Below are positions 361-32,000 of a stretch of DNA of 32,000 nucleotides, one piece after another; position 1 is the stretch's first letter; every line of letters starts with the position of its first letter. The notes under the pieces are model-generated. The model saw only the letters and a list, made by a program, of their open reading frames with translations, had not been told where the DNA came from and made no database searches. A program made the translations under genes and the position numbers. Where the stretch lies: the NCBI GenBank assembly GCA_022826945.1, contig JAJDTY010000023.1, forward strand, positions 115,390-147,389, in the 5' to 3' direction. Source of the stretch: Candidatus Binatia bacterium (GTDB lineage: Bacteria; Desulfobacterota; Binatia; Bin18).

Positions 361-1105
361 GGGCCGGTGTCGAGCAGACCGAGCAGTGCGGGTTCTTCTC
401 AACCACCTGCTCGGTGCAGTGAAACGCCGGAAATGTATACGCCAACAGTTTTGGCGGGCTCTCCGCCTCGGGCTGAAGGATGATCTTCAGGGCTTCGGTA
501 ACGAGTTGGGTACCCAAGAAGAACGCGTATGGAGAAAAGAGGAAATATGCCCTTCCTCGATCGGCAGATGCGGGATACGTTTCCTCTTTACCGCGGGCCG
601 GAGAGTCAAGCGGACCTCCAGCTCCTGAGAAAAGACAGCGCAGGCAGGGCCGGGCAGCCCTGTCACCCCGACTTACGAATAAGCGGGCGTTTTCTCCGCT
701 GGCCGCTCCCCACACAAACGGCTTGTGCTGAGCGTACCACCCATCGTGCAGCGCATCCGTTGTTGCCAGGACCAGATCATAGTGGTGAGGTGGTTGTTCG
801 TCCTCATTCGGATGGGTCACAATGGTACAATCAGGATTCAGACGCCTGAGTACGTGTGCCACCGGTTGCTCATCCGGTCCCAGGGATTGCTCCGCAAGAA
901 CGGAAAAGATCTGAGCGGCTTTAGCCCGCGCCACGCCAATAGTCCCAACGCCGGCAGCGACGAGATAAAAAAGCGCAGCGGCGGCGAGCAGCCCGTCCCC
1001 GTCAACGTACACCTGACCCTGAAGAATTTTTTCCTGCCCCTTTCCGCCGACCTGGGGCAGAATGATTTGTCGGCTATAGCGTTCGATCTGGACGTCTTCG
1101 AGCAT
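353..1105 (-). CDS. ThiF/MoeB-family E1-like protein with degenerate nucleotide-binding motifs (predicted non-catalytic paralogue)
   Basis: ORF track 353..1105 (250 aa). The N-terminus [22 protein letters not shown] and two CxxC pairs (CLRC, CSVC) are colinear with MoeB/ThiF. The Gly-rich loop reads VDGDGLL instead of GxGGxG, and the DxD...SNLxRQ and GTDN segments are missing. Carries an in-frame palindromic repeat (535-590). Confidence 0.75.
535..590 (+). repeat. Palindromic repeat family X, copy inside the E1-like CDS (in frame)
   Basis: AAAAGAGGAAATATGCCC-TTCCTCGATCGGCAGATGC-GGGATACGTTTCCTCTTTA. Arms and centre align with the other six copies. On the coding (minus) strand it encodes [20 protein letters not shown]. 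Confidence 0.8.
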
Positions 1106-1185
1106 GGGGACTTCTCAAGCCTCTATGAGTCCATTGAGTCTTTGGGGTCTTTTGGGTCAAGACTCAACGGACCCCAATGTCTCTG

Positions 1186-2196
1186 TCACGCTGCACCCTC
1201 TGCCCGAGCGTTGGCCTGCCGCTGATTATACTCTTTCCAGCCGATCCACAGATTGGTGCTGAGATACTTGTCTCCGAAGTCCGGAAAAAGCGTTACCACC
1301 ATGCCCTGATCGATCTCACGGGCCACCTGGAGCGCCGCCCACATCGCCGCGCCGGATGACTGGCCAACCAATACTCCCTCTTCCCGACCAAGCCGATATA
1401 CCGTTTCATAGGCGTCTTCAGTTGAGACGCTGATTTTTCGGTCCAATTGCTCTTCATGGTAGATGCCCGGCACAATGGAGCTGTCCATATGTTTCAGCCC
1501 CTCAAGGCCATGAAAGGCGTCATCCGGTTCAACCCCAACAATCTGAATGTCCGCGTTTTTCTCCTTCAGGTAGCGTCCGGTTCCCATCAGGGTACCGCCG
1601 GTCCCCATGCCGGCCACAAAGTGAGTGATCTGCTCTTTTGTCTGCCACCACAGCTCCGGCCCAGTTGTCTGGTAGTGGGCCAGCGAGTTGTGTGGATTGA
1701 AGTATTGATCCGGTTTGAAATAGCGCTCGGGATGCTCCTGCAGCCGCTCCCGACACAGTTCCAAAGCTCCGTCCGAGCCGTCCATGGGGCTACTGAAAAT
1801 CATCTTTGCCCCATACGCGGAGATAATTTTTTTCCGCTCTATACTGACGTTGGCCGGGATGCACAGCTCGACCGGATAGCCCAGCACGGCGCCGATCATG
1901 GCCAATGCAATACCAGTATTCCCAGAGGTGGAATCGAGAATGATCTTGTCCGGAGTTAGCGCGCCGTTTTCGATTCCTTTTTGGATCATGCACAGCGCGG
2001 GACGATCTTTGACCGATCCACCCGGATTGAAACCCTCGAGTTTGGCATAAACCCGGACACTAGGCGCAATGTCCGTACTCAGCCGGGTAATTTCAAGCAG
2101 CGGCGTATTCCCAATCAGGTGAAGAACGGACGGAACACGCAGGGGACCTGCTGGGGGTGGTCCCTCGGTCGGAAAAAGAGCAAACGTGTCCAGCAT
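1186..2196 (-). CDS. cysM: PLP-dependent cysteine synthase, CysM type (likely CysO-thiocarboxylate dependent)
   Basis: ORF track 1186..2223. Motifs GNTPLLEI, YAKLEGFNPGGSVKDRPA (PLP lysine), GTGGTLMG. ATG 2196 lies 7 nt after the cysO stop. The track start 2223 is a TTG overlapping cysO by 20 nt (alternative start). Confidence 0.85.
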   Translation of the reverse strand: MLDTFALFPTEGPPPAGPLRVPSVLHLIGNTPLLEITRLSTDIAPSVRVYAKLEGFNPGGSVKDRPALCMIQKGIENGALTPDKIILDSTSGNTGIALAMIGAVLGYPVELCIPANVSIERKKIISAYGAKMIFSSPMDGSDGALELCRERLQEHPERYFKPDQYFNPHNSLAHYQTTGPELWWQTKEQITHFVAGMGTGGTLMGTGRYLKEKNADIQIVGVEPDDAFHGLEGLKHMDSSIVPGIYHEEQLDRKISVSTEDAYETVYRLGREEGVLVGQSSGAAMWAALQVAREIDQGMVVTLFPDFGDKYLSTNLWIGWKEYNQRQANARAEGAA

Positions 2197-2203
2197 TTCT
2201 TCT

Positions 2204-2485
2204 CTATCCAGAGCCTCCGGCAATAGCAGGCACGATAGACACTTCGTCGCCCTCGTTCACCGGCGTATCCAGGTTGTTAATAAAACGAATGTCTTCACCA
2301 TTCACAAAGATATTGACAAAGCGACGGACTTCGCCGGCCTCGTCACACAACCGTTCTTTAATCCCAGGATGATTACTCTCTATATGATCAACCAAGGCCC
2401 CAACCGTGGCTCCATCGGCCGAGACTGCTTCCGCGCCGCCAGTAAAGCGGCGTAGCGGGGTTGGGATACGGACCTGAGCACTCAT
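2204..2485 (-). CDS. cysO: ThiS/MoaD-type sulfur-carrier protein (CysO-like) ending ...AIAGGSG
   Basis: ORF track 2204..2512. I moved the start to ATG 2485 (MSAQVRIPT...), which has GGAGGGAG 5 nt upstream. ~93 aa of beta-grasp carrier size with a C-terminal Gly-Gly motif, sitting between an E1 and cysM. Confidence 0.8.
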   Translation of the reverse strand: MSAQVRIPTPLRRFTGGAEAVSADGATVGALVDHIESNHPGIKERLCDEAGEVRRFVNIFVNGEDIRFINNLDTPVNEGDEVSIVPAIAGGSG

Positions 2486-2575
2486 GTTCACTCCCTCCTG
2501 ATTCAGAATCACTCATCTGCTTTTTCTAGCTTCTACTGTTACGTTTTTGCTTCGGTCTGACAATCACCCTGTCCG

Positions 2576-2629
2576 AAAGAGGCAACGTATCCAGCATCTC
2601 GTGTCTAGTGGAGGACACGTTCCCTCTTT
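2576..2629 (-). repeat. Palindromic repeat family X, intergenic copy (E1 stop to cysO start)
   Basis: AAAGAGGCAACGTATCC-AGCATCTCGTGTCTAGTGGA-GGACACGTTCCCTCTTT. 15 of 17 arm positions pair. The centre is the reverse complement type of the TCCAATAG... centres. Confidence 0.85.
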
Positions 2630-2633
2630 ATGC

Positions 2634-3398: not shown

Positions 3399-3420
3399 GC
3401 TGTCTTATTTTCCCAATAGA

Positions 3421-3452: not shown

Positions 3453-3486
3453 CGGCTACGCACGCTCTCTGCCTAGGCGACAGGTC

Positions 3487-5101: not shown

Positions 5102-7300
5102 CTACCCTTCAAAGGGCTGTAAGCCGTCTAGATCGGGCTCTCCCTCGACGGGCATCTGGGCATCGGACTGGGCCTTGGTAAATTCGTACAGGCGCTGCTG
5201 AGACCGAACAGGGGCGAGCGGGTCGGGCTCTACCCGCCTGGAGCGCCCGTCGGGTAGGATCGTGCGGGCCTTGACTGTGTCGGCCAGCTGAATGCTGAGT
5301 ATTTCAAAAAGCTGGGCCTGGATATGGGGATCAAGGATGGGAAAGGCGACTTCGACGCGGCGGTCCAGATTGCGTGGCATCCAGTCGGCGGATGCCAGAA
5401 AATACTCGGCATCGCCATCATTATGAAAGTAAAATATGCGGGCGTGTTCGAGGTAGCGGTCGATAATGGAAATCACCCGAATCCGTTCGGATATGCCCGG
5501 CAGTCCGGGCCGCAGGCAGCAAATGCCACGGATGATAAGATCAATCTCCACCCCCGCTTGGCTGGCCGTGTATAGCTCCTCAATCATGGCCGCGTCAACC
5601 AGACTGTTGATCTTGGCAATGATTCTGGCCGGCTTGCCCTCCAGGGCGTGTTCTGCTTCGCGCCGAATCCGCTCAATCATCCCCTCCCGCATACTCGTGG
5701 GAGCGACCAGGAGGTGATGAAACGTCTGCGGACGGGTATAGCCGGTTAACAAGTTGAACAGGTCGGTGAGATCGTCGCCAAAGGACTCGCGGCAGGTAAA
5801 GAGACCGAAGTCGCCGTAGATGCCGCTCGTATTCACATTATAGTTACCGGTCGCGAGGTGGCAGTAGCGACGGATGCCACCATTCTCACGCCGTACCACC
5901 AGACACGCCTTGCAGTGCGTCTTATAGCCGACCAGCCCATACACCACATGGGCGCCAACCTCTTCGAGCGCCCGCGCCCAAGTAATATTGGCCTCCTCAT
6001 CAAAACGGGCCCGGAGTTCGACCAGGACAGCCACTTCTTTACCCGCTTCTGCGGCCCGCGTGAGTGCCTGGGCAATGGGTGAGGTTGGACTGACCCGGTA
6101 GAGGGTCATTTTAATGGCCAGGACATTCGGGTCGGTCGCGGCCTCTTCCACAAAGCGCATCACCACATCGAAAGACTGGTAGGGATGGTGCACCAGGATG
6201 TCGCCCTCCCGAATGGCACTCCACATGTCCGGCTTTTTCTCACAGGCCGGGACCTGCAGGGGTGTCCACGGTTGGTCTTTATGCTGCGGCAGGTCCACGG
6301 CTCCATAGAGCTGGAACAGGTCGGTAAAAGCGGTGAAACCCTCACCGGCGTACAGGTCTTCGGGGTGCAGGTCGAGTTCATCAATAAACATATTGAGGAC
6401 GGCCTGCGGCAGGTCGGAGTCGTATTGTAGCCGTACCGCGGTCCCCATGCGCCGGTCGCGTACACTCTCTTCGATACTCGTCAGCAGATCTTCGGTTCGG
6501 CCGAGCGCCAGGGCCGAGTCCGCGTCCCGCGTCACCCGGACGGCATGACACGACAGGATCTCATAGCCGTGATACGGGCGGGGCAGGTACAGCCGAACCA
6601 CATCTTCGAGCAGGATAAAGATATGCTTGCCAGCTGGAGCCGGGAGCGCAATAAAGCGCTGGACGACTTGGCTGGGGATATGGACGACAGCCAGTTTGGT
6701 CTGGGGCAGACGCGAAGTCCCGGCCGAGCGCAGGGCCGCGACCAGACACAGGGCGCGATTGCCGAGATGGGGAAAGGGATGGCCGGGATCAATCGCCAGC
6801 GGCGTGACAACCGGCAGCAGGGTCCGCCGAAAGAAGTCTTCAAGAAAATGACTTTGCTCGGCATTCAACTCTTCCGGGCGGGTAATATGAATTCCCTCCG
6901 CCTCCAGTTGCGGCTGAATGGTCTCCAGAAACCCTCGGTGTTGTTCCTCGGCCAGCTCATGGACCCGTTTTGAGATAGCGGTCAGTGTCTGGGCCGGTGT
7001 CATGCCATCCGGACCAGCCTCCAGGTCGCCCTGGACAATCCGCCGCTTGAGCCGCGCCACGCGGACCATGAAAAATTCGTCCATATTGGCACTGAATATG
7101 GCCATGAACTTGACGCGTTCGAGCAAGGGGACACTCTCATCGAAAGCTTCCTCAAGGACGCGTCGGTTGAATTCGAGCCAGGACAACTCACGGTTAATAA
7201 AAGGCTTGTCTTCCATGCAGATACCGCCGTCAAGAGGAAACGTGTTCTCCTCTCCAATGATAGAGAGGTACTGAACTCGTTTCCTCTCTCTATCAGACAT
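5102..7300 (-). CDS. ppk: Polyphosphate kinase 1
   Basis: ORF track 732 aa. FINRELSWLEFNRRVLEEA at the N-terminus and the VGYKTHCKACLVVRRE catalytic-His region. The homologous part starts at Met29 (ATG 7216). The first 28 codons are repeat-derived (see findings). ATG 7300 has GGAG 10 nt upstream. Confidence 0.9.
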   Translation of the reverse strand: MSDRERKRVQYLSIIGEENTFPLDGGICMEDKPFINRELSWLEFNRRVLEEAFDESVPLLERVKFMAIFSANMDEFFMVRVARLKRRIVQGDLEAGPDGMTPAQTLTAISKRVHELAEEQHRGFLETIQPQLEAEGIHITRPEELNAEQSHFLEDFFRRTLLPVVTPLAIDPGHPFPHLGNRALCLVAALRSAGTSRLPQTKLAVVHIPSQVVQRFIALPAPAGKHIFILLEDVVRLYLPRPYHGYEILSCHAVRVTRDADSALALGRTEDLLTSIEESVRDRRMGTAVRLQYDSDLPQAVLNMFIDELDLHPEDLYAGEGFTAFTDLFQLYGAVDLPQHKDQPWTPLQVPACEKKPDMWSAIREGDILVHHPYQSFDVVMRFVEEAATDPNVLAIKMTLYRVSPTSPIAQALTRAAEAGKEVAVLVELRARFDEEANITWARALEEVGAHVVYGLVGYKTHCKACLVVRRENGGIRRYCHLATGNYNVNTSGIYGDFGLFTCRESFGDDLTDLFNLLTGYTRPQTFHHLLVAPTSMREGMIERIRREAEHALEGKPARIIAKINSLVDAAMIEELYTASQAGVEIDLIIRGICCLRPGLPGISERIRVISIIDRYLEHARIFYFHNDGDAEYFLASADWMPRNLDRRVEVAFPILDPHIQAQLFEILSIQLADTVKARTILPDGRSRRVEPDPLAPVRSQQRLYEFTKAQSDAQMPVEGEPDLDGLQPFEG
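7232..7290 (+). repeat. Palindromic repeat family X, copy at the 5' end of the ppk ORF
   Basis: AAGAGGAAACGTGTTC-TCCTCTCCAATGATAGAGAGGTACT-GAACTCGTTTCCTCTCTC. 14 of 16 arm positions pair. Confidence 0.8.
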
Positions 7301-7388
7301 CAGGTCTACGCTCCGAAAACGATAGATATAAGCGCAGCGTGCTGCAACCCCAGGGGGATTTTACACCGATACGAGTTCATAGGAGCGA

Positions 7389-7481
7389 GAGGGAGGGGCG
7401 CTGGTAGGGCGTGTGATCCTTGGGGAGGGAGATCGACACTACGCCTGCCAGCGCCAGGGGGAAGGATAACACCTTCTCTCC
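7389..7481. repeat. Tandem intergenic repeat R, copy 1 (ppk-mgtE spacer)
   Basis: GAGGGAGGGGCGCTGGTAGGGCGTGTGATCCTTGGGGAGGGAGATCGACACTACGCCTGCCAGCGCCAGGGGGAAGGATAACACCTTCTCTCC. It aligns with 7559-7650 and is followed by the hairpin TCTCTCC-TATC-GGAGAGA-TTTT (7475-7496). Confidence 0.75.
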
Positions 7482-7491
7482 TATCGGAGAG

Positions 7492-7533
7492 ATTTTACCG
7501 AAGAGTGACAGGTCGGTGACAGTCTGGTTATAC
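7492..7533 (-). promoter_or_regulatory. Pho-box-like triple heptamer plus -10 candidate, oriented toward ppk
   Basis: Minus strand reads GTATAAC-CAGA-CTGTCAC-CGAC-CTGTCAC (7533..7505, 11-bp phasing), then 7 nt, then TAAAAT (7497..7492). Matches the enterobacterial Pho-box form CTGTCAT-N4-CTGTCAY. Confidence 0.6.
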
Positions 7534-7558
7534 ATGCGGCATCGGGGTTCAAGATATT

Positions 7559-7650
7559 GAGAGGGGGCGCTGCCAGGGCGTGTGATCCTAGGGAGGCGGA
7601 CCAACATTGCACCTAGCAACGCCAGGGGGAGGGACAACATTTCTTTTCTC
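7559..7650. repeat. Tandem intergenic repeat R, copy 2
   Basis: GAGAGGGGGCGCTGCCAGGGCGTGTGATCCTAGGGAGGCGGACCAACATTGCACCTAGCAACGCCAGGGGGAGGGACAACATTTCTTTTCTC. Roughly three quarters identical to copy 1 by eye. Confidence 0.75.
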
Positions 7651-7666
7651 TATGTTTCCCTCTTGT

Positions 7667-7706
7667 ATGACACCATTGTGACTCGCTGATGAAAAATGTG
7701 TGACAC
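7667..7706 (-). promoter_or_regulatory. Array of four Pho-box-like heptamers with 11-bp phasing
   Basis: Minus strand reads GTGTCAC-ACAT-TTTTCAT-CAGC-GAGTCAC-AATG-GTGTCAT (7706..7667). These are the same heptamer types as in the porin and receiver promoters. No convincing -10 lies downstream. Confidence 0.5.
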
Positions 7707-7804
7707 TGCTAGGTTGCACCCGTTCAGGACGCTCTCATCTCATTCCAGGCCATTCATCTTTTGCGATTTGGCAGCTACAGTTCGGACGAGAAGCGATACG
7801 ACGC

Positions 7805-9202
7805 ATGGAAGCACAGACGACATATCCACCGGTTGCCGCGGCCTCTCCTCAGGGTCACCCGCAACCGCCTTCCCTCGAACATCTCGTCATTCAGGCCGAG
7901 CTGGGTCACGACGAGATGGTGCGGACGGGGATAGCCGCCTTACATCCGGCGGATACCGCAGAGTTATTGAATGTGCTGGAAGAGCCTGAGGTGAAGTTTA
8001 AGGTGTTTGGCTTTCTGGCCGTACCGCAAGCAGCCGAAGTCTTAAGTCTCGTTTCCGCACACACCCAAGACGATCTTGTTGAACGCTTGTCGGATGACGG
8101 GCTCGGGGACCTGATCGAATATCTTGACTCTGATGATGCCACGGACTTGCTAGCCTCCCTCTCGGCCCGCCGCGCCAAAGCTATCCTCGACGAAGTACCA
8201 CAGGACCTGTCCGATGAGGTCACGCAACTCTTGCGCTATCCCGAGGATACGGCTGGCGGGATCATGCAAGTCGAGTATATGGCTGTGTCCCAAGGGACGC
8301 GTATCGACCAAGCCACTGAGATGATTCGCAGCCGGAGCGATGAAATTCCGGATATCCACAGCGTCTTTATCGTCAATAACACCAATCGCCTGGTCGGCGT
8401 CCTCCCCCTCCGAAAGTTTATTCTCGCCCGCTCGGCCGATCTTGTCGAAACCGTCATGGACCAGCAGGTCATTTCGGTTCGGGCGGACCTGGACCAAGAA
8501 CAGGTCGCCCAGATGTTCAAGAAATATGACCTGATCTCTTTGCCCGTGGTTGATAGCGCGGGGTGCTTACTCGGGCGTATTACGGTCGATGACGTGGTTG
8601 ATGTCATGGAGGAGGAGGCGACGGAAGACATTTATAAGCTTGCCGGTCTGGATGAAGAGGAAGAAGTGCTGGACTCGCCCTGGCAGTCCATCCGTCTTCG
8701 TTTGCCCTGGCTGGCACTCAATTTGGTGACCACCACGCTGAGCGCCCTTGTCATTGCCTTTTTTGAAGGAACGATTCAGCAAATTGCCATTGCTGCGGCC
8801 TTTATGACGATTGTCGCGGCCCAAGGTGGGAATGCTGGCGTGCAAACACTGACCGTCATCGTTCGGGGTATCGCGCTGGGGGAAGTCCCGCTGACCCAAA
8901 CCAAGCGAGTGTTAGTCAAGGAACTGACTATCGCGCTGGGCAATGGTCTGGCTCTTGGTGCTGCGGCTGGCGTTGTTGCCTACCTGTGGAAGGGCGATGC
9001 CACACTGGGGATCGTGCTGGCGCTGGCGCTGCTGGCCAACTTGATCATTGCGGCGTTTGTCGGGAGTGTGGTCCCTCTGACTCTCCGCCGCCTGGGTGTT
9101 GACCCGGCGGTGGCCTCAAACGTGTTTGTGACAGCCTGTACCGATATTTTTGGCTTTTTGTCTTTTTTGGGCATTTTAACCTTGTTCTTACAATTTATCT
9201 GA
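7805..9202 (+). CDS. mgtE: Magnesium transporter MgtE
   Basis: ORF track 7700..9202. MgtE N-domain, tandem CBS region (HSVFIVNNTNRLVGVLPLRKFI; YDLISLPVVDSAGCLLGRITVDDVVDVMEEEATED) and a C-terminal TM domain (GGNAGVQTLTVIVRGIALGE). I moved the start to ATG 7805 (MEAQTTYPP...), because 7700-7706 belongs to the heptamer array and the upstream 35 codons have no MgtE counterpart. Confidence 0.85.
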   Translation: MEAQTTYPPVAAASPQGHPQPPSLEHLVIQAELGHDEMVRTGIAALHPADTAELLNVLEEPEVKFKVFGFLAVPQAAEVLSLVSAHTQDDLVERLSDDGLGDLIEYLDSDDATDLLASLSARRAKAILDEVPQDLSDEVTQLLRYPEDTAGGIMQVEYMAVSQGTRIDQATEMIRSRSDEIPDIHSVFIVNNTNRLVGVLPLRKFILARSADLVETVMDQQVISVRADLDQEQVAQMFKKYDLISLPVVDSAGCLLGRITVDDVVDVMEEEATEDIYKLAGLDEEEEVLDSPWQSIRLRLPWLALNLVTTTLSALVIAFFEGTIQQIAIAAAFMTIVAAQGGNAGVQTLTVIVRGIALGEVPLTQTKRVLVKELTIALGNGLALGAAAGVVAYLWKGDATLGIVLALALLANLIIAAFVGSVVPLTLRRLGVDPAVASNVFVTACTDIFGFLSFLGILTLFLQFI

Positions 9203-9243: not shown

Positions 9244-9972
9244 ATGCAAAGAGGAAATGCGTCCGGCATCTCAGGTCTATTGGAAGACCCGTTTTCTCTT
9301 TGTGCCGCATCCCTGCTTATGGCGGCCATCAGTCTTTGCCTCATCGGCTGCTCTGAAACCCTGATCCCAACTCTTCCGCCGGCATCAACCCATACGCCCG
9401 TGGCTCAGCTCGCCCAAGAGGGAAAGCTGGACCCGGACGGTATCTGGTCGGACGACAACCAAGCCATTGAGTTTTCTGTTCCCGCGGAACAACTTGCCGC
9501 CCTGGTGATCCAGGCCGCAAAAACCGAAGGCTGGCACGCACGCGATACGGTGAATAAATATAAACCTCACCCCCTTTCTCCTCCTGAAGGGAGGAAGGGC
9601 GACACGTATTTCGTTCATCTGTTGAACCCGTTCGAAGAGCACTGGTTCGGGTATGCGCAACACGACATCATGATTTACACCACACAGGGGAGGAGCGCGG
9701 TCCAGGTTTCGGATGGAGGGCCGATTGGTGGAGACGATGAAAGTGCTCTCCCACGCACGCTTCTGGACCCGGTTCGGGAGCATGTTCAGGCCTATTTGGC
9801 CGGTCGCCCGCTTACGGTCCGAGAAAAGCGTCAACTCCGCGAGGCCGCGCTCGCTCACCCAGAACGCCTCCCAGAGGAGCGTCTGAACGATATTAAGCGT
9901 CTGCGCGACCAGGGTTATCTCAACGCCGAAGAATACGAACGGAAACGGGCAGAAATTCTGAAATCATTGTAG
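9244..9972 (+). CDS. Hypothetical lipoprotein with a C-terminal SHOCT domain
   Basis: Lipobox SLCLIGC. C-terminus ERLNDIKRLRDQGYLNAEEYERKRAEILKSL is SHOCT-like. AAGGAAG lies 4 nt upstream of ATG 9244. Codons 2-20 are repeat-derived, so the true start is uncertain (next ATG 9319). Confidence 0.6.
   Translation: MQRGNASGISGLLEDPFSLCAASLLMAAISLCLIGCSETLIPTLPPASTHTPVAQLAQEGKLDPDGIWSDDNQAIEFSVPAEQLAALVIQAAKTEGWHARDTVNKYKPHPLSPPEGRKGDTYFVHLLNPFEEHWFGYAQHDIMIYTTQGRSAVQVSDGGPIGGDDESALPRTLLDPVREHVQAYLAGRPLTVREKRQLREAALAHPERLPEERLNDIKRLRDQGYLNAEEYERKRAEILKSL
9248..9302 (-). repeat. Palindromic repeat family X, copy at the 5' end of the lipoprotein ORF
   Basis: AAAGAGGAAATGCGTCC-GGCATCTCAGGTCTATTGGAA-GACCCGTTTTCTCTTTG. 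The centre is nearly identical to that of copy 2576-2629. Confidence 0.8.
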
Positions 9973-10091
9973 GGGCAGGCAGGCACCTATCAATTTCTCT
10001 AATAATAGAAATTCGCATAATTCAGGCTGAGTTATCTTCCCAAGCCGGTTTGTTCGTGCTATGAAATCCCTCATACTGGTTATGAATACAG

Positions 10092-10174
10092 GCATACATA
10101 GCTGAGTTCTCCCCGACTCAGCGTGTATCGAGGCCCGCAGGTTTCCCCTCCTTTTTCCTGCGGGCCTTTTTTGT
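10092..10174 (+). repeat. Hairpin plus intrinsic-terminator module Y, copy A (candidate small RNA or terminator cassette)
   Basis: GCTGAGT-tctcccc-GACTCAGC (10101-10122), then GGCCCGCAGG-tttcccctccttttt-CCTGCGGGCC-TTTTTT (10132-10172; perfect 10-bp stem, T6). About 88 percent identical by eye to 15696-15777. Confidence 0.7.
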
Positions 10175-10277
10175 TTCCTACGGATGACAGGACAACGACG
10201 CCCGGAAGATAGAAATATAACAAAAAGCGATAATCCAGATGAGAGCGCCTGGGGAGTGCATACTCTGGCTCTGTCCC

Positions 10278-10295
10278 GTGTCATAGAAGTTTCAA
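10278..10295 (+). promoter_or_regulatory. Weak Pho-box-like pair upstream of the PlcP-like operon
   Basis: GTGTCAT-AGAA-GTTTCAA. The first heptamer is 6/7 to CTGTCAT and the second is TTTTCAC-like. The nearest -10-like hexamer (TAACAT, 10314-10319) is 18 nt away, which is farther than expected. Confidence 0.3.
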
Positions 10296-10340
10296 CCTCA
10301 AGAGACTCCAGCGTAACATGCGCTCCTTATACTCAGCCCC

Positions 10341-11156
10341 GTGGTACGAGGTATTGCCAGCCGGCCAACCGGCCTGAAGCGGTCCGGCCAGTCCTCGCGG
10401 CTCTTCATCCCGCCGCTCAAGCCGGCCTTCCCCCGCCCGGTCACCACCTTGCCCGTCGAGCGGCGGGTCAGGGCCACCGCCGTCGATACGCTGATCGTCT
10501 CCGATGTGCACCTCGGAACCGAGGTGAGCCGGGCGTCCGCCCTGCTTGCCACGCTCAAGCGCTCGACCTTTAACCGGCTCATCCTGCTCGGCGACATCTT
10601 TGACGAGCTGAACTTCGCTAAACTCCACCCCGGTCACTGGAGCCTCCTCTCTCATGTTCAAAAGTTGGCGGTACCCCGAAGTGGGATTGAGGTGGTCTGG
10701 GTCGAGGGAAACCATGATCGGCTGCTATCCAAAGTGATTCGGACTTTTCTTGGTATTCCGATCTACAAACGGTATGAATGGGTCCATAGAGGAAAAAAGT
10801 TGCTGGCCCTGCATGGTCATCAGTTTGATACCTTCATCACCCGCTATCCGTATATTACCGGCTCCGCGGACCATCTCTACCGAACCATCCAACGTATTGA
10901 GCCGCGTCACTACCGCTTAAGCCGTCTCCTCAAGCAGAACAGCAAAACATGGCTCCGTATCTCCGAGCAGATCGCCTGGGGAGCATTATCGTATGCAAAA
11001 AAACGGGGCGCGACCCAGATTTTCTGCGGGCACACGCATTATCCCATGTCGCAGCAATCTGCCGGAGTGACGTACTATAACGCGGGTTGCTGGACAGAGA
11101 CACCGGCAACGTTCATCACAGTGAGTGATTGTGTGGCATTGCGCGAGTGTATGTAA
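10341..11156 (+). CDS. Calcineurin-type metallophosphoesterase, LpxH/PlcP-like
   Basis: Motifs SDVHLG, LLGDIFD, EGNHD, LHGHQFD, CGHTHYP. The track start is GTG 10341; TTG 10449 (12 codons before TLIVSDVHLG) is an alternative. No clear SD for either. Confidence 0.75.
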   Translation: MVRGIASRPTGLKRSGQSSRLFIPPLKPAFPRPVTTLPVERRVRATAVDTLIVSDVHLGTEVSRASALLATLKRSTFNRLILLGDIFDELNFAKLHPGHWSLLSHVQKLAVPRSGIEVVWVEGNHDRLLSKVIRTFLGIPIYKRYEWVHRGKKLLALHGHQFDTFITRYPYITGSADHLYRTIQRIEPRHYRLSRLLKQNSKTWLRISEQIAWGALSYAKKRGATQIFCGHTHYPMSQQSAGVTYYNAGCWTETPATFITVSDCVALRECM

Positions 11157-11191
11157 ACGAACAGGCCATTCCATGGAAGGACGGCATCGGC

Positions 11192-14052: not shown

Positions 14053-14053
14053 C

Positions 14054-15624: not shown

Positions 15625-15695
15625 AGAGCAAGCGACCCGTGTGTACCGCCACTGGAGACCGAAGCCAGCACCTACTCTTGCAATATTGAGAATAT

Positions 15696-15777
15696 GTATA
15701 CATTGCTGAGCTCTCCCCGGCTTAGCATGTATCGAGGCCCGGAGGTTTCCCTCCTTATTCCTGCAGGCCTTTTTTGT
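15696..15777 (+). repeat. Hairpin plus terminator module Y, copy B
   Basis: GCTGAGC-tctcccc-GGCTTAGC (15705-15726; one compensatory T-A to C-G change and one G-U relative to copy A), then GGCCCGGAGG...CCTGCAGGCC-TTTTTT (15737-15775; two stem mismatches). Confidence 0.65.
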
Positions 15778-21686: not shown

Positions 21687-21741
21687 AAAGAGGAAATGTG
21701 TTCTCCAATAGCATATATAGTGCTGGACACGTCTCCTCTTT
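21687..21741 (+). repeat. Palindromic repeat family X, intergenic copy (pstS-pstC)
   Basis: AAAGAGGAAATGTGTTC-TCCAATAGCATATATAGTGCT-GGACACGTCTCCTCTTT. 16 of 17 arm positions pair (two G-U). Confidence 0.85.
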
Positions 21742-21760: not shown

Positions 21761-21785
21761 GAAGGGCGGAGATCCTCCGCCCTTC
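21761..21785 (+). other. GC-rich stem-loop in the pstS-pstC spacer
   Basis: GAAGGGCGGAG-atc-CTCCGCCCTTC (11-bp perfect stem), extendable by AAGGAG/CTCTTT across a CC bulge. No U-tract follows. Confidence 0.6.
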
Positions 21786-21837: not shown

Positions 21838-24171
21838 ATGCCGGAGACGCAGGAACGTCCATCCCAACCGTCATCGCTGCCGGCCGCAAACGGAGTGCAG
21901 CCGGTCGGTGTCCGTCTCTCGGCGACTGAAGATAAAAGCCGGCTTCAGCGGAAAAAGCTGGTTGATAAGGCCGCGACTATTCTGATCACCTTTGGTGGCT
22001 TTGCCGTTATTCTGAGTATTGCCGCCATTCTTTTTGTGATCGTGGCCGAAACCGTACCCCTCTGGAAGGCGCCAACCGCGGAGCTTGAGACCCCGCCAAT
22101 TCCGCTGACCGACTTGGTCGGCAGCGGACCCCATGCGGACGTCCTGGCGCTGGGCATCGATGAATATCGAGAAATCGCCTACACCATTACCCAGGCGGGA
22201 ACGGTTGATTTTCTCTCCCTCGCGGACAACCAACTCCTCCAGCGCTATGAGATCCAAGCTCTACAGGGGCGACAGATCACCGCAGTGCACTATCGCAACC
22301 TGACGCATACTGCTGTGCTCGGAACCGCCGACGGTGTTGTCATTCCCCTGACGATCTCCTTCCCGGTCTCGTTTGAGGGTAAGACCCGGATCAGCACGCC
22401 CAAAGTCACGGAAGACGAGGCAATCGTCCTCGACCCACAAGGCCGCGCTATTGAGGCGCTGACCTACCAGAGCACCAGTGAAGACGAGGAGAAGATGACA
22501 CTGGCCGCCCTGCTCGGTCCACGCACCCTCCTCTTCCTGTCTCGAACAGTCGAAGAATCATTCCTAGGTGAGTCTCAGGTGTTGGAACACCGCGCAGAGC
22601 TCTCAGCCGCACTGGGTGTGAACGTGACGGCGTTGACGTTAGATGCGGAACAGCGGAACCTGTTTGCCGCATTGGAAACCGGTGAAGTGATCCATTGGGA
22701 TATCCGCGACGCCGCTACACCCCAGATCAAGCCGCGCTTGCGGAGTCAAGAGCGGGCTCCCGTCCGGGCAATGGCCTGGTTGATTGGCGACCGCTCTCTC
22801 GTCATGGGCGATGACGCCGGGGGTGTGAGCGTCTGGTTTCAGGTGCGCGACCAGGATAATCCGGTCGAACTCCCCTTTCGTGAAATTCATGTGATGCAGT
22901 CCCACGACGCAGCCATCACGACCATCTCCCCTTCTCCGCGGAATAAAGGCTTTGTGACCGGTGATACCAGCGGCACGGTCCGTATCCAGTATTCAACAAC
23001 CGAAACTACCATGTTGAGCCGCGACACAGCCAGCAACTCGATTATGCAGCTCGCCTATGCCCCACGGACAAATGGTATCGTTGCCCTCAATCAAGAAGGC
23101 CAACTGTACAACTGGGCGGTTGACAACCCTCATCCCGAGATCACTCTCTCGGCCCTGTTCGGAAAGATCTGGTATGAGGGCTATGACGCTCCGGACTATA
23201 CCTGGCAGTCCAGCAGTGGAACGGACGACTTTGAACCGAAATTCAGCCTTTCTCCACTGGCCTACGGAACCTTAAAAGGAACATTTTACGCCCTGCTGTT
23301 AGCTATTCCCCTCAGCCTATGTGGTGCGCTGTACACCTCGCAGTTCATGCATCCGCGGCTGCGCAATCTCGTCAAGCCCTCGGTTGAGGTGATGGCCGCC
23401 TTACCCAGCGTCGTGCTCGGCTTTTTCGCCGGTCTGTGGCTGGCACCCTTGGTGGCCGACATGGTGCCAGCTCTATTGTTGATGTTCATCGTGCTGCCCC
23501 TGGTGACCCTGGGCGCGTCATGTGTCTGGCGGCTGCTACCCCTTGGCTTTCGCAGTAGCCTGAAACCGGGTGTAGAACTCCTGTTCCTGGTCCCACTGAT
23601 CATGCTCGCCATCTACATTTGTGTCGTGCTGAACAATCCGCTGGAGGCCGCCTTTTTCGCTGGTGATTTTCCCCAATGGCTGTACGACACCTCCGGGGTT
23701 CGGTATGACCCCCGCAACTCGCTGATTGTGGGCTTTGCCATGGGCTTTGCTGTCATCCCCATTATCTACACCATTTGCGAGGACGCTTTTTCCAACGTTC
23801 CTCAGCATCTGATTTCAGGGTCGTTAGCGCTGGGAGCGACGCGGTGGCAAACGGCCCTGCGGGTCGTGCTGCCAACGGCCAGCCCCGGTGTATTCTCGGC
23901 CATCATGATCGGCTTTGGACGGGCGGTCGGGGAAACCATGATTGTCCTCATGGCCACCGGTAATACGCCCGTCATGGACTTTGATCCCTTTACCGGCTTC
24001 CGCGCCTTATCGGCGAATATCGCTGTGGAAATCCCGGAAGCACCCCACGGCGGGACGCTCTACCGTATCCTCTTCCTGGCTGCTTTGTTGCTCTTTATTC
24101 TAACGTTTCTGGTCAATACCGCGGCGGAAGTCGTCCGCCAGCGCTTACGAGATCGCTATGGCCGCATCTAA
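21838..24171 (+). CDS. pstC: Phosphate ABC transporter permease PstC, long form with a ~400-aa extracytoplasmic insert
   Basis: 777 aa. One N-terminal TM helix, then a large soluble region with repeated beta-propeller-like motifs, then a C-terminal permease core with GATRWQTALRVVLPTASPG (EAA loop). Confidence 0.85.
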   Translation: MPETQERPSQPSSLPAANGVQPVGVRLSATEDKSRLQRKKLVDKAATILITFGGFAVILSIAAILFVIVAETVPLWKAPTAELETPPIPLTDLVGSGPHADVLALGIDEYREIAYTITQAGTVDFLSLADNQLLQRYEIQALQGRQITAVHYRNLTHTAVLGTADGVVIPLTISFPVSFEGKTRISTPKVTEDEAIVLDPQGRAIEALTYQSTSEDEEKMTLAALLGPRTLLFLSRTVEESFLGESQVLEHRAELSAALGVNVTALTLDAEQRNLFAALETGEVIHWDIRDAATPQIKPRLRSQERAPVRAMAWLIGDRSLVMGDDAGGVSVWFQVRDQDNPVELPFREIHVMQSHDAAITTISPSPRNKGFVTGDTSGTVRIQYSTTETTMLSRDTASNSIMQLAYAPRTNGIVALNQEGQLYNWAVDNPHPEITLSALFGKIWYEGYDAPDYTWQSSSGTDDFEPKFSLSPLAYGTLKGTFYALLLAIPLSLCGALYTSQFMHPRLRNLVKPSVEVMAALPSVVLGFFAGLWLAPLVADMVPALLLMFIVLPLVTLGASCVWRLLPLGFRSSLKPGVELLFLVPLIMLAIYICVVLNNPLEAAFFAGDFPQWLYDTSGVRYDPRNSLIVGFAMGFAVIPIIYTICEDAFSNVPQHLISGSLALGATRWQTALRVVLPTASPGVFSAIMIGFGRAVGETMIVLMATGNTPVMDFDPFTGFRALSANIAVEIPEAPHGGTLYRILFLAALLLFILTFLVNTAAEVVRQRLRDRYGRI

Positions 24172-27493: not shown

Positions 27494-28294
27494 ATGGCGG
27501 GACAACAGCAGACAGCGGAGGTAGCGGGAAGAGGAAACGCGTCCTCCAATAGACCTGCAGATACTGGACATGCTTCCTCTTTGGCCAAGCGGAAAGTGCT
27601 GATCATTGAAGATGAAAAAGATATCCGCGACCTGGTTCGATACCATCTGGAAACCGAAGGTTTTACCGTTCTCGAAGCGAGTGACGGCGAAGTGAGCCTG
27701 CATCTTGCCGCTACCGAACGGCCGGCGCTTATTATTCTCGACCTCATGCTGCCCGGCCTGTCCGGCCTTGAGGTGTGTCGAACGTTGCGCGCACAGGACA
27801 AGCTGGCCACCGTCCCAATTCTGATGCTGACGGCGCGCGCCTCCGAGGTTGATAAGATCCTGGGTCTCGAAATGGGGGCGGACGATTATATGACCAAGCC
27901 CTTCAGCCCGCGTGAACTCGTCGCTCGGGTCAGGGCGGTCTTGCGTCGGACCTATGGGCCGCCGGCGGATCAGCCGCATCAGATGTATGTCTGTGGTCGG
28001 CTGCAGATCGATTACGATACCTACGAAGTAAGGCTCGATGGCAATCCGCTCGAACTAGGTCTGCGCGAGTTTGAATTGCTTAAATTTTTCGTCCAGTCCC
28101 CGAACCGGGTTTTCAGCCGGACCCAAATCCTTGATCTGGTGTGGGGGCATAACGTCTATATTGAGCCCCGCACGGTCGACGTCCATATCCGCCGTCTGCG
28201 GAAGCGCATCGAACAAGATGACGCCAACCCGAGTCTGCTGCTGACCGTGCGTGGGGTTGGGTATAAATTTAATCCGGAGGCGCTCGAGACCTAA
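27494..28294 (+). CDS. phoB: OmpR-family response regulator PhoB
   Basis: KVLIIEDEKDIRDL...LIILDLMLPGLSG...MLTAR...GADDYMTKPFSPRELVARV plus a winged-helix C-terminus (LTVRGVGYKF). The first ~30 codons are repeat-derived. TTG 27581 (MAKRKVLIIEDE) is an alternative start. Confidence 0.9.
   Translation: MAGQQQTAEVAGRGNASSNRPADTGHASSLAKRKVLIIEDEKDIRDLVRYHLETEGFTVLEASDGEVSLHLAATERPALIILDLMLPGLSGLEVCRTLRAQDKLATVPILMLTARASEVDKILGLEMGADDYMTKPFSPRELVARVRAVLRRTYGPPADQPHQMYVCGRLQIDYDTYEVRLDGNPLELGLREFELLKFFVQSPNRVFSRTQILDLVWGHNVYIEPRTVDVHIRRLRKRIEQDDANPSLLLTVRGVGYKFNPEALET
27529..27582 (+). repeat. Palindromic repeat family X, copy at the 5' end of the phoB ORF
   Basis: AAGAGGAAACGCGTCC-TCCAATAGACCTGCAGATACT-GGACATGCTTCCTCTTT. 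Encodes (G)RGNASSNRPADTGHASS(L). Confidence 0.8.
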
Positions 28295-28329
28295 TCGCGC
28301 AGCTACCGGATACAACACGGCCCGTTCGT

Positions 28330-29865: not shown

Positions 29866-31184
29866 GGCTGCTGCCAGTTTTGGTGCACCCAGGAGAGCGC
29901 GGCCTGTCGGGTGCGCACCCGGCCTTCGAGCTGGGCCTCCTCCAGCGCTCTCAGGATGGTGGAGAACTGCGGACCAGGCTGAAATCCGAGCTGGATCAGG
30001 TCCCGGCCATTCAACAGCCGGGGCGGACGCAGTTCCTCAGGGTCGAGCGCGAGCAGTTTTTGACGGCAGAAGGTATACGCCTCAAGATTGCCGTGCGACG
30101 CCAGGGCGTCCAGGCGGGCGAGGTCCAGCAGCTCTCCAATACCGTCGAGGCGTAGAAAGCGCTTGAGCGTTGCTGCTCGCATGCGGGGTGCGTCCAGCAG
30201 CCGCAGGTGGTTTTTGACGAGAAAGGCCACCCGCTCCCAGGTTGCGCGTGAGCGTTTCAGACGCTGACAGATATCGATCGCCATCTCCGCACCGGACTCG
30301 CAGTGGCCGTGAAAGGTGATGCGCTCTCCGGCCCGCTGCTGGCAGTGGGGCTTGGCGATGTCATGGAGCAGCGCGCCCAAAGCCAGGCTCTCGTTCGGCT
30401 GCTCAAGGGCATCGAGCTGGTGCAGAACTAATAGTGTGTGAACAAATACATCGCCCTCGGGATGAAAATCGGGCGACTGCGCCACCCCGCGTAGCGCCAG
30501 GACTTCGGGCAGTACGGTCGCCAGCAGGCCCGAGTCCGCCAATAGCTCCATCCCTGAGCGTGCGCCGCCCTCGGTCAGGAGTTTCACCACCTCGTCGCCG
30601 ATGCGCTCCCAGGCCATGTCGGTCAGCGTCGAAGCGATTTGGCCAATGGCGCGCCAGGTCTCGGGCTCGATAGCGAAGCCTAACCGGGCAGCGAAGCGGA
30701 CGGCCCGCATCAGGCGTATGCGATCTTCGTGAAAGCGGGCGGCCGGCTCTCCAATGGCCCGAATGATTCGGTTGTTCAGGTCCGCCTGCCCGCCCACATA
30801 ATCGATGACCGTGTCGGTCAGTGGGTCAAAGAATATGCCGTTAATCGTGAAATCACGTCTTAGCGCGTCCTCCCGGGCGGTGCTGAAGCAGACCGCTACC
30901 GGGTGACGACCGTCGTTATAGGCCCCATCCGCCCGAAACGTCGCCACCTCATAGGGAACGCCCTCCAGGACGACGAGGACCACCCCGAACTGCGCCCCGA
31001 CCGGAATCGTCTGCGGAAATATCTTCTGGACCTCGGCGGTCCGGGCATCCGTGGCGATATCGAAGTCTTTGGCCTGAATGCTCAGCAGGCGATCTCGCAC
31101 GCAGCCGCCGGCAAAATAGGCCGTATAGCCATGCCGGTGCAGCGTCTGCACAATCGTCCTGGCCTGTTCCTCCCGCTGGCTCAT
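29862..31184 (-). CDS. cca: CCA-adding tRNA nucleotidyltransferase / poly(A) polymerase family with an HD domain
   Basis: Start placed at ATG 31184: MSQREEQARTIVQTLHRHGYTAYFAGGCVRDRLL...DFDIAT...; RDFTINGIF; HD region FHPEGDVFVHT...LLHDIAKP. The upstream 245 codons of the track ORF are antisense to murF. Confidence 0.85.
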   Translation of the reverse strand: MSQREEQARTIVQTLHRHGYTAYFAGGCVRDRLLSIQAKDFDIATDARTAEVQKIFPQTIPVGAQFGVVLVVLEGVPYEVATFRADGAYNDGRHPVAVCFSTAREDALRRDFTINGIFFDPLTDTVIDYVGGQADLNNRIIRAIGEPAARFHEDRIRLMRAVRFAARLGFAIEPETWRAIGQIASTLTDMAWERIGDEVVKLLTEGGARSGMELLADSGLLATVLPEVLALRGVAQSPDFHPEGDVFVHTLLVLHQLDALEQPNESLALGALLHDIAKPHCQQRAGERITFHGHCESGAEMAIDICQRLKRSRATWERVAFLVKNHLRLLDAPRMRAATLKRFLRLDGIGELLDLARLDALASHGNLEAYTFCRQKLLALDPEELRPPRLLNGRDLIQLGFQPGPQFSTILRALEEAQLEGRVRTRQAALSWVHQNWQQP

Positions 31185-31280
31185 ACGCGTATGGTGACAC
31201 GCCGCGCCTGGGAGAGCAATGGAACGCAGTGACCCTGGACGCTTGCGACGCCTAGGCCGCCTCGATAGAGTTGGCCCATT

Positions 31281-32000
31281 GTGGGAGTTGCACTCTACGC
31301 GCACGATATCTGTACCGCCACTAGAGGAAAGCTCAGGTGGGGTCGCCCGGACACGCTCTTTACCTCGGTCAGCATTGATTCGCGTCACATCGCTCCCCGG
31401 GCGCTGTTCGTCCCGCTCGCTGGCGAACAGGTCAATGGGCATCGTTATATTCCGGCTGCGGTGGAGGGAGGTGCGGCTGGCTTTCTTTTTTCGCCGTCTT
31501 TCCTGGAAAGAGCAAACGTGTCCTCCAACAACATGCAGATGCCAGACACGCTTACTCTTTTCGTGCCGCCGGACGGGGCCACCGGCATTGAAGTCGCCGA
31601 CCCGCTGCAAGCTCTCCAAGCCCTCGCCACCTGGCACCGCCAGCGGCTGTCCGCGCGGGTAATTGGGATCGCTGGCAGCAACGGCAAAACAACGACTAAA
31701 GAACTGATGGCCCAGGTCTTTACCGCTCAACGACCCACCCGGGCGACCCAGGGAAATCTGAATAATCACATCGGTCTGCCCCTGACCCTGCTGCGCGCCG
31801 CGTCGGAAGACGCCTTCCTGGTCCTGGAAATGGGGACGAGCGGTCCCGGAGAGCTCACCCTGCTGGGCCGCTTCGCACAGCCCCACATTGGTGTCATTAC
31901 CTCCATTAGCGAAGAACACACCGAGACGCTCGGTGACTTGGCCGGGGTGCTGGCCGCCGAAACCGAACTCCTGTCTGCGCTACCGCCCGACGGGGTGGCT
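31281..32000 (+). CDS. murF: UDP-N-acetylmuramoyl-tripeptide--D-alanyl-D-alanine ligase (MurF), N-terminal 240 codons; continues beyond the right edge
   Basis: Open-ended, so not in the track. My translation in the frame of 31281: (V)GVALYAHDICTATRGKLRWGRPDTLFTSVSIDSRHIAPGALFVPLAGEQVNGHRYIPAAVEGGAAGFLF...RVIGIAGSNGKTTTKELMAQVF...GNLNNHIGLPLTLL...LEMGTSGPGEL. An in-frame TAG at 31266 makes GTG 31281 the first possible start. Confidence 0.85.
   Translation, partial: MGVALYAHDICTATRGKLRWGRPDTLFTSVSIDSRHIAPRALFVPLAGEQVNGHRYIPAAVEGGAAGFLFSPSFLERANVSSNNMQMPDTLTLFVPPDGATGIEVADPLQALQALATWHRQRLSARVIGIAGSNGKTTTKELMAQVFTAQRPTRATQGNLNNHIGLPLTLLRAASEDAFLVLEMGTSGPGELTLLGRFAQPHIGVITSISEEHTETLGDLAGVLAAETELLSALPPDGVA
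31507..31561 (+). repeat. Palindromic repeat family X, copy inside murF (in frame)
   Basis: AAAGAGCAAACGTGTCC-TCCAACAACATGCAGATGCC-AGACACGCTTACTCTTTT. Encodes LERANVSSNNMQMPDTLTLF. Confidence 0.8.

Follow-up and report, generated by a model that had tools for sequence, protein, structure and literature searches.

A 32,000-nt stretch of a Candidatus Binatia metagenome contig, analysed at its full length (the window), carries a palindrome of 54-55 nt in seven full copies and a truncated one, which raises the question of whether this is a dispersed DNA repeat or a conserved protein motif, and of how copies that fall within genes are tolerated. The arm GGACACGTTTCCTCTTT, allowed three mismatches or fewer, matched the window 15 times against 0.11 expected and a maximum of 2 in shuffles; these matches correspond to both arms of each of the seven copies plus a solo arm at 2175-2191. 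A covariance model of the family, with 107 members as input, recovered exactly the seven full copies (E 3.5e-16 to 1.9e-8) and nothing further, and matched the truncated copy weakly. A sequence-only reading of the same DNA had proposed seven copies and a half copy, and all eight coordinates proved correct within 1 nt. Counting G.T pairs, 14-16 of the 17 arm positions are paired. The description of the centres as a single family read in either orientation was also accurate (forward in the copies starting at 536, 7231, 21687, 27528 and 31507; reverse in those at 2576 and 9248).

Genomic setting of the copies

Two full copies and the truncated copy are intergenic in the window. The full copy at 2576..2629 (minus strand, 54 nt, centre reverse, 68.7 bits under the covariance model) lies in a sulfur-carrier operon identified with Pfam, between the moeB/thiF stop (2634) and the ThiS-like start (2512). 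The truncated copy, at 2175..2205 on the minus strand, consists of one arm (1 mismatch) and the start of the centre, equivalent to model positions 24-54 in nhmmer; it starts at the stop codon of the ThiS-like gene (2204-2512, minus; Pfam ThiS) and extends into the 5' end of a cysK/M-type ORF (Pfam PALP) whose start codon is uncertain. The other full intergenic copy (21687..21741, plus strand, 55 nt, centre forward, 56.4 bits) occupies the pstS-pstC spacer, with a GC-rich hairpin at 21761-21785 just after it. In the pst spacer of locus L100 a copy lies on the far side of the same hairpin, which points to an independent insertion.

Further copies were sought beyond the window, as the sequence-only reading had proposed, and many were found. 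A pattern scan of species-representative genomes returned at least 115 stretches and, among the matches listed, all fell in about 17 Binatia MAGs, one of which carries the label Thermodesulfobacteriota. About 1 Mb of loci contained 198 copies. Tiles selected because they contained one copy had additional copies at about 0.07 per kb, and the window and L004 had 0.22-0.28 per kb; these densities imply hundreds of copies per 5-Mb genome.

The copies had been described as lying mostly inside reading frames. In the window, five do fall within mechanical ORFs, two of which are probably upstream ORF extensions (ppk and a lipoprotein gene). At family scale the description does not hold, with 144 of 185 copies (about 78%) intergenic, although at least 11% lie deep within genes; the intragenic range, about 11-19%, is approximate because the gene calls came from a crude home-made coding score. 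The degenerate copy at 7231..7289 (plus strand, 59 nt, centre forward, 39.8 bits), near the minus-strand ppk gene, is placed 14 nt upstream of the ppk ATG at 7216, within an 88-nt insertion absent from L013. In the alignment of filled and empty ppk sites (L101, L013), the orthologous start in L013 aligns to ATG 7216, and PP_kinase_N begins at aa 34 of the long ppk ORF; the coding status of this copy is ambiguous because an upstream ATG at 7300 is also in frame. The full copy at 9248..9301 (minus strand, 54 nt, centre reverse, 57.7 bits), with the end of mgtE (9202) on one side, most likely sits in the 5' untranslated region of a SHOCT lipoprotein gene, the signal peptide of which (MAAISLCLIGC) begins at 9319; the segment 9240-9984 is missing from the syntenic locus L101.

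Copies read as protein

Two window copies are certainly coding and in frame (murF and a ThiF-like gene), a third, in the phoB tail, is probably so, and two are ambiguous. The full copy at 31507..31560 (plus strand, 54 nt, centre forward) lies inside murF (start 31281, continuing beyond the window end) and is read in frame 3 as ERANVSSNNMQMPDTLTL. These 18 residues are absent from 13 orthologous proteins (60-91% identity), and comparison with the unoccupied sites in L004 and L031 shows a difference of exactly 54 nt and no duplication. In the N-terminal tail of a phoB-type response regulator (ATG 27494; receiver domain from aa 35), the full copy at 27528..27582 (plus strand, centre forward) represents a net 54-nt in-frame insertion that is common to L004 and L005. 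In L031, where the site is empty, the sequence reads MAVHQQPAEAAESKRKVLIIED, and both the ATG and the ribosome-binding site are unchanged; the tail copy is probably coding. In the ThiF-like gene (353-1105, minus; Pfam ThiF), the copy at 536..589 (plus strand, 54 nt, centre forward, 43.9 bits) is read in frame as aa 172-190. Repeat-derived peptides occupy the loop after the CLRCL motif in close Binatia orthologues, with none at 48% identity; in the AF2 model, loop 162-190 has a pLDDT below 50 and no secondary structure, the model being weak as a whole (mean pLDDT 62). Separately, murF was called as split fragments in the low-coverage assembly L002.

Elsewhere in the family, Pfam domains span the insert in mnmG (two copies), MltA, a CoA-transferase, the Mo subunit of xanthine dehydrogenase, an FAD monooxygenase and MrpA. 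Together with the in-frame copies of murF and the ThiF-like gene, these cases uphold the earlier claim that the element tolerates translation. Among the deep intragenic copies, 15 of 21 are 54 nt long and most are read in frame 3; the intragenic minority persists across species.

Several copies are translated, and their commonest reading, RGNVSSNRHEMLDTFPL, recurs across different proteins, as would be expected of a conserved peptide motif or a chance similarity instead of a DNA repeat. However, proteins draw on at least four different frames of the same 54-mer DNA and on either orientation, most copies are non-coding, and the arm count is far above expectation. The proposed comparison of orthologues with and without the insert yielded murF proteins that lack the 18 residues, and empty sites in murF, phoB and ppk. 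The peptide-motif explanation is refuted and has virtually no probability left, in agreement with the claim of the sequence-only reading that this is a dispersed DNA repeat of MITE/REP type and not a conserved protein motif.

Insertion, folding and candidate mobilisers

At murF and phoB, orthologous sites with and without the copy differ by exactly 54 nt. No target-site duplication was found at three resolved sites, and direct flank matches of 2-6 nt across 185 copies were at chance level. Many sites have received the element as one discrete unit of exactly 54 nt, and related species differ in their insertions. Near-perfect 17-bp terminal inverted repeats, a small size without coding capacity and presence or absence that differs between sites are all features of a classical MITE, a deletion derivative of an insertion sequence whose terminal repeats would be recognised by a DDE transposase. 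Such an origin is nevertheless improbable given the missing duplication, both at the three sites and in the 185-copy statistics, and the length of 54 bp, at the very small end of the MITE range. Moreover, neither a longer element with the same ends nor an arm pair enclosing a gene was present in about 1 Mb of loci, and only eight solo arms were found there.

The architecture and the mostly extragenic location of the 54-mer fit the description of REPINs (PMC3337134). A REPIN in the strict sense would be a REP doublet whose copying depends on a dedicated, single-copy RAYT (a Y1 HUH transposase) encoded in the same genome; the lack of a target-site duplication is in keeping with this, and RAYT genes do exist in Binatia (Pfam Y1_Tnp, 3.5e-10; homologues named RayT). 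However, RAYT loci from three Binatia lineages (L015, L121/L122 and L123) are flanked by arrays of a different GC-rich repeat, GGGAGYGCGGGCKTCC..., and no 54-mer occurs within 4 kb of these three loci. GTAG is the conserved 5' tetranucleotide of E. coli REPs, and neither it nor another conserved flanking tetranucleotide is present in the consensus arm AAAGAGKAAACGTGTCC and its flanks. A share of at least 11-19% of copies in genes is also unusual for REPs. A strict REPIN is unlikely, though not far-fetched.

The consensus runs from AAAGAG[T/G]AAACGTGTCC through an asymmetric centre of 20-21 nt to GGACACGTTT[A/C]CTCTTT, with two 17-bp inverted arms that each hold an ACGT-centred near-palindrome, GGAMACGTKTCC. 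Arm cells are paired in 95.3% of cases, positions 7 and 48 covary (T-A in 56 against G-C in 36), and the hairpin formed by the consensus has a folding energy of -17.3 kcal/mol (z = -9.1). Copies in the window have decayed, with folding energies of -7 to -16 kcal/mol. Wobble-type mismatches across the family are symmetric (117 G.T against 98 A.C), so that neither strand is preferred for folding, and the centre is flipped between the arms at orthologous sites. As an 18-codon unit, the element is open in five of six frames (G-type) or three of six (T-type). Binatia also have a composite repeat, about 150 nt long, in which the 54-mer is one module alongside further small hairpins and inverted repeats on the outside.

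A Shine-Dalgarno and anti-Shine-Dalgarno role for the two arms, as raised by the sequence-only reading, is contradicted as a feature of the family by position 7, where roughly half of the copies have T (AAAGAGTAAA; T-A in 98, G-C in 59), by a spacing to start codons that is not fixed, by the G.T/A.C symmetry and by the flipped centres. An intrinsic terminator was ruled out, since no T run lies 3' of the stem, the stem base is AT-rich, convergent spacers hold a near-background share of the intergenic copies (16 of 144, or 11%, against 13%) and some copies are intragenic.

More generally, the repeat could be primarily a host cis-element, either a paired site for a putative dimeric DNA-binding protein, with each arm contributing one ACGT-centred half-palindrome, or a hairpin acting on mRNA stability or translation. 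At shared sites the element diverges by 6-7% against 11-15% for the flanks, the latter a rough value because the comparison is ungapped and some pairs are paralogous; this lower divergence could mean constraint or gene conversion, not neutrality. Intergenic copies lie in divergent, promoter-bearing spacers more often than the share of such spacers would predict (26% against 15%), and several copies adjoin start codons in the pst-pho and ppk region. Nonetheless, copies within unrelated genes, variable distances to gene starts, orientation flips at the same site, wobble pairs without strand asymmetry, the frequent T in place of a Shine-Dalgarno-like G at position 7, the exclusion of a terminator and an Rfam search without a match for the repeat combine to make a primarily host function very improbable. 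We know of no IHF, gyrase or Pol I binding for the 54-mer.

Relation to described repeats and biological meaning

We consider it likely that the 54-mer constitutes a non-autonomous, REPIN/MITE-like family of selfish, non-coding repeats of about 54 bp, specific to the candidate class Binatia and tolerated within proteins in the manner of RPEs. The RPEs are dispersed palindromes of about 100-150 bp, found between genes and in frame in unrelated housekeeping genes with the ORF kept, and nearly half intragenic in three singled-out families (PMC10969869). The Binatia element, likened to them by description, shares in-frame insertion in functional genes, here murF, mnmG (two copies), mltA, phoB and the ThiF-like gene. 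It differs in its length of 54-55 nt (18 codons), in being found solely in Binatia among the matches listed, in a lower intragenic share (about 11-19% against nearly half) and in its host, which is free-living, environmental and has a genome of roughly 5 Mb, whereas Rickettsia is intracellular with a reduced genome.

REPINs consist of two short imperfect inverted palindromes with a variable spacer, form hairpins and are mostly extragenic, the GI REPIN of Pseudomonas fluorescens SBW25 being 89 bp long (PMC3337134). The 54-mer resembles REPs and REPINs as a lineage-specific, mostly extragenic palindrome-doublet hairpin with hundreds of copies and apparent vertical persistence, but it is shorter than 89 bp, has a notable intragenic share, and the examined Binatia RAYTs carry another flanking REP. 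Correia, ERIC and BOX MITEs have terminal inverted repeats, are non-coding, vary in presence and in some cases lie within genes or are fused to ORFs (PMC10969869). The 54-mer has the same terminal inverted repeats, lack of coding capacity, variable occupancy and occasional intragenic copies; unlike them it is much smaller and without a target-site duplication, and about 1 Mb of loci yielded no parent insertion sequence. As a module of the 150-nt composite, it recalls the BIMEs of enterobacteria, which are mosaic arrangements of REPs, although the module sequences are unrelated. Chloroplast spacers have hairpin-associated small inversions, with the loop in either orientation at an orthologous site, as is the 54-mer centre between species; unlike these, the 54-mer is a dispersed bacterial repeat family that is sometimes inside genes.

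The missing duplication and the REP-doublet architecture suggest that the element would spread in trans through an enzyme encoded elsewhere, probably via a single-stranded hairpin intermediate of IS200/IS605 or RAYT type, and the inverted centres point to interaction of the arms in vivo at the DNA level. Copies within genes would survive selection only if in frame, stop-free and placed in tolerant loops or tails, which an 18-codon unit open in most frames would allow. The element would thus be largely selfish or neutral, and single copies may have been co-opted.

Selfish palindromes that survive in frame in proteins are known best from Rickettsia, and there are also reports of intragenic copies of ERIC, BOX and further MITEs; the Binatia case shows the same phenomenon with a much smaller unit, in bacteria that are uncultured, free-living and have large genomes. 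This suggests that the phenomenon is general wherever a repeat is a multiple of three and stop-free. In Binatia MAGs the repeat misleads gene callers through upstream ORF extension and can also break assemblies; it could serve as a lineage marker and as a natural set of 18-residue insertions for the study of loop tolerance. It is quite unlikely, though conceivable, that the 54-mer is the visible part of an undescribed mobilisation system, independent of the RAYT in the same genomes, that inserts hairpins without duplication, inverts loops in vivo, persists class-wide and seeds 18-residue loops in housekeeping proteins. If this were true, such a system would contribute to protein innovation in free-living bacteria instead of being junk alone.

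A palindromic repeat family in Candidatus Binatia

Allowing up to three mismatches, the arm GGACACGTTTCCTCTTT matched the window 15 times, against 0.11 expected from dinucleotide-preserving shuffles; these matches are both arms of seven palindromes and one solo arm at 2175-2191. The full copies of the repeat (hereafter the 54-mer), at 536-589, 2576-2629, 7231-7289, 9248-9301, 21687-21741, 27528-27582 and 31507-31560, pair at 14-16 of 17 arm positions when G.T pairs are counted. A covariance model built from 107 family members returned exactly the same seven copies and, weakly, a truncated copy (2175-2205) that starts at the ThiS stop codon. The arm search, the pairing and the model thus bear out the position and description of the seven palindromes in the sequence-only reading. 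According to the model, the centre is reversed in the copies at 2576 and 9248 and forward in the other five. The hairpins of the window copies are decayed (-7 to -16 kcal/mol); as DNA, the consensus hairpin reaches -17.3 kcal/mol (z = -9.1). The window itself matches a 187-kb metagenome scaffold (ENA ERZ23491282, KELL22-1 scaffold_143) at 100% identity.

The family consensus is AAAGAG[T/G]AAACGTGTCC-TCCAATAG.ACATG.AGATGCT-GGACACGTTT[A/C]CTCTTT, with a length of 54 nt in 88 of 155 copies and 55 nt in 51. Across the family, 95.3% of arm cells are paired, and covariation links position 7 to its partner (T-A in 56 copies, G-C in 36). Five of the six reading frames are free of stops in the consensus with G at this position (G-type), and three of six in the T-type, where TAA interrupts frame 1 in both orientations. 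A composite mosaic repeat of ~150 nt also includes the 54-mer as a module, set between other small hairpins with its centre in either orientation and bounded by the outer inverted repeats AACCCACCCCGG and CGGGGTGGGTT. Several copies of this composite occur per genome, for example in the comparison loci L022 (20-190), L109 (3870-4025) and L047 (6876-7040), and in ~12 other loci.

Further copies, which the sequence-only reading had proposed seeking genome-wide, proved numerous: a scan of the GTDB set (one genome per species) with a degenerate two-arm pattern found at least 115 stretches. Among the matches listed, ~17 MAGs were represented, all labelled Candidatus Binatia except one labelled Thermodesulfobacteriota. 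A family profile searched with nhmmer located 198 copies in ~1 Mb of fetched loci. Tiles picked for carrying one copy had further copies at ~0.07 per kb, and the window and its syntenic counterpart L004 reached 0.22-0.28 per kb; for a 5-Mb genome, these densities imply from several hundred up to about a thousand copies. The pattern had no match in a viral contig collection, Rfam at gathering thresholds gave no match across the whole window, and our literature search on palindromic repeats in Binatia returned nothing relevant and no paper on the 54-mer.

Copies within genes and between them

The copies in the window lie in and around a sulfur-carrier cluster (by Pfam, PAPS reductase, a ThiF-like gene, cysK/M, a ThiS-like gene and moeB) and a phosphate cluster (ppk, mgtE, an O/P porin, pstSCAB, phoU, phoB and phoR), beyond which lie the CCA-adding enzyme and murF. 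The sequence-only reading placed five copies inside ORFs; only two to three of the seven full copies are coding, those in murF and the ThiF-like gene with certainty and that in phoB probably. Comparison of orthologues with and without the insert, also proposed there, identified relatives lacking the segment for both murF and the ThiF-like gene. The copy at 31507-31560 is certainly inside murF, which starts at 31281 and continues beyond the window end; its 18 residues LERANVSSNNMQMPDTLT are absent from 13 orthologues (60-91% identity), and at the empty sites of L004 and L031 the difference is exactly 54 nt. L002 (13307-14569), an assembly of the same species at 5x coverage, has murF called as split fragments around a repeat copy.

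The copy at 536-589 is equally certain to be inside the ThiF-like gene, where residues 172-190 are the repeat read in reverse in frame 1. Close Binatia orthologues carry the same or other repeat-derived peptides (ERVNxPSNRQA, ...AGHVYSF) in the loop after CLRCL, and orthologues at 48% identity have no such peptide in this loop. The AlphaFold model leaves residues 162-190 unstructured, within a model that is weak as a whole (mean pLDDT 62). Locus L023, considered as an orthologue of this copy, was rejected since only the 60-nt repeat matches, identifying it as a subfamily member located elsewhere. In phoB, the empty allele of L031 retains both the ATG and the ribosome-binding site, 13 nt past the phoU stop, and reads MAVHQQPAEAAESKRKVLIIED; the window copy (27528-27582) is therefore probably within the gene, as a net 54-nt in-frame insertion in the N-terminal tail. 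Peptides predicted from copies in genes, if these are translated, would include RGNVSSNRHEMLDTFPL and ERANVSSNNMQMPDTL.

Whether the ppk copy (7231-7289) is coding is ambiguous: L013, which lacks an 88-nt block, starts at a GTG that corresponds in the alignment to the window ATG at 7216, 14 nt past the repeat, and a further in-frame ATG lies upstream at 7300. The neighboring ppk-mgtE spacer (7395-7639), upstream of mgtE, holds two ~77-nt direct repeats 168 nt apart, and a permissive Rfam scan of 7290-7900, including the Mg riboswitch, gave only a chance lncRNA match. The copy at 9248-9301 is probably non-coding, as the lipoprotein signal peptide starts at 9319. The syntenic locus L101 lacks the segment 9240-9984, to which this copy and the SHOCT lipoprotein gene belong, so that the repeat lies exactly at an indel boundary. 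Also missing from L101 is an island of ~5.5 kb (10083-15775) encoding a metallophosphoesterase, a 793-aa class-III aminotransferase-like protein, PEMT and a GT4 glycosyltransferase, and bracketed by an 89-nt direct repeat (10083-10171, 15687-15775) with a GC hairpin and a T run at its end. The remaining full copies, at 2576-2629 and 21687-21741, are intergenic.

Coding context across the family was assessed with an iteratively trained dicodon score, adopted in place of a simple codon-usage score that was too weak and had shadow ORFs among its training set. The dicodon score is itself crude and mis-calls some genes (e.g., the CCA-enzyme ORF merged over the murF start), such that the fractions are approximate. 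By these gene calls, intergenic copies number 144 of 185, with 36 in predicted genes; if ~88% of the DNA is coding, an assumed figure typical of bacterial genomes, copies are roughly 25- to 30-fold rarer per base in genes than outside them. Among intergenic copies there is an excess in divergent spacers (26%, versus 15% of spacers) and none in convergent spacers (11% versus 13%), and in this the 54-mer differs from terminator-type repeats.

Deep intragenic copies, with one continuous coding frame by dicodon score and at least 60 codons on each side, accounted for 21 of 187 testable copies; 15 of the 21 measure 54 nt, and most are in frame 3, reading (E/K)R[G/V]NVSSNRHEMLDTFPL. A Pfam check of ten host ORFs confirmed as real genes, whose domains span the insert, mnmG/gidA (two copies), the molybdopterin subunit of a xanthine-dehydrogenase-type enzyme, MltA, a family III CoA-transferase, an FAD monooxygenase, a HEAT-repeat protein and an MrpA-type antiporter, the last with its copy at a domain boundary. 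Several insertions within genes are common to different species.

Mobility, loop inversion and candidate enzymes

Filled and empty alleles of murF and phoB show that the copies are discrete insertions of exactly 54 nt each. In the pstS-pstC spacer, the window copy precedes a GC-rich hairpin and the L100 copy follows the same hairpin, indicating insertion at different points. This hairpin (21761-21785; GGGCGGAG-ATC-CTCCGCCC then TTCCTCTTT) is kept in L100 and lost in L004, and resembles an attenuator or terminator downstream of pstS. The downstream pstC (21838-24171) is unusually long at 777 aa, with weak matches to WD40 or beta-propeller families at residues 256-446, ahead of the permease domain; L004 and L002 conserve this long form.

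No target-site duplication was visible at the sites compared in murF, phoB and the pstS-pstC spacer; around 185 copies, flank-to-flank direct matches of 2-6 nt were at chance level and no conserved target motif was present. Of 29 groups of flank-matched copies, 7 showed inversion of the centre with respect to the flanks, including two clean orthologous cases (L096/L014 versus L111/L071, and L026 versus L079/L092). The loop between the arms has thus flipped in place, from which we infer that the arms interact as DNA. The test for strand-specific wobble pairs, a sign of an RNA function, was negative: G.T and A.C mismatches are about equal (117 versus 98), so that neither strand is favored for folding, and this speaks against a strand-specific RNA structure. 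Together with the missing duplication, the REP-doublet architecture would point to mobilization by an IS200/IS605- or RAYT-type mechanism that works on a single-strand hairpin.

An ORF screen of the 1-Mb sample (motif and phmmer) yielded a single Y1_Tnp protein (L015:172-834, minus strand; Pfam 3.5e-10), whose database homologues are named RayT. It was dropped as a lead to the enzyme of the 54-mer, as both flanks carry arrays of a different, GC-rich REP, GGGAGTGCGGGCTTCCAGCCCGCAA; the same holds at two further Binatia RAYT loci, within 4 kb of which no 54-mer was found. In these arrays, GGGAGTGCGGGCTTCCAGCCCGCAA alternates with GGCGGCCAAGATGGCCGCGCTCCCAG (L015 1-1250; L121 3955-4615; L123 3898-5264). 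This classical RAYT and GC-rich REP pair is a second repeat system in Binatia, unrelated to the 54-mer and absent from the window. Solo arms of the 54-mer numbered eight in the ~1-Mb sample, and none bracketed a gene.

Function and classification

The suggestion that one arm acts as a Shine-Dalgarno sequence and its partner as an anti-Shine-Dalgarno does not describe the family: about half of the copies have T in place of the G of GAGG, and neither the distance to start codons nor the orientation is constant. Where genomes share a site, divergence is 6-7% within the element and 11-15% in the flanks (ungapped flanks, some pairs paralogous); the lower divergence of the element may leave room for constraint or gene conversion, on which we do not lean.

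In its behavior within proteins, the 54-mer is closest to the Rickettsia palindromic elements. These are about 150 bp long (PMC10969869) and belong to another lineage, so that the 54-bp repeat is not one of them. REPINs are nearest in architecture (PMC3337134), although their defining RAYT link was not found, and a MITE would be marked by the target-site duplication that the 54-mer lacks. We file the 54-mer with other small palindromic interspersed repeats, a known class within which it is distinguished by an 18-codon unit, in-place loop inversion and the lack of any copy beside the RAYT genes examined. On the simplest reading, the repeat is selfish or neutral, with selection acting as the filter.
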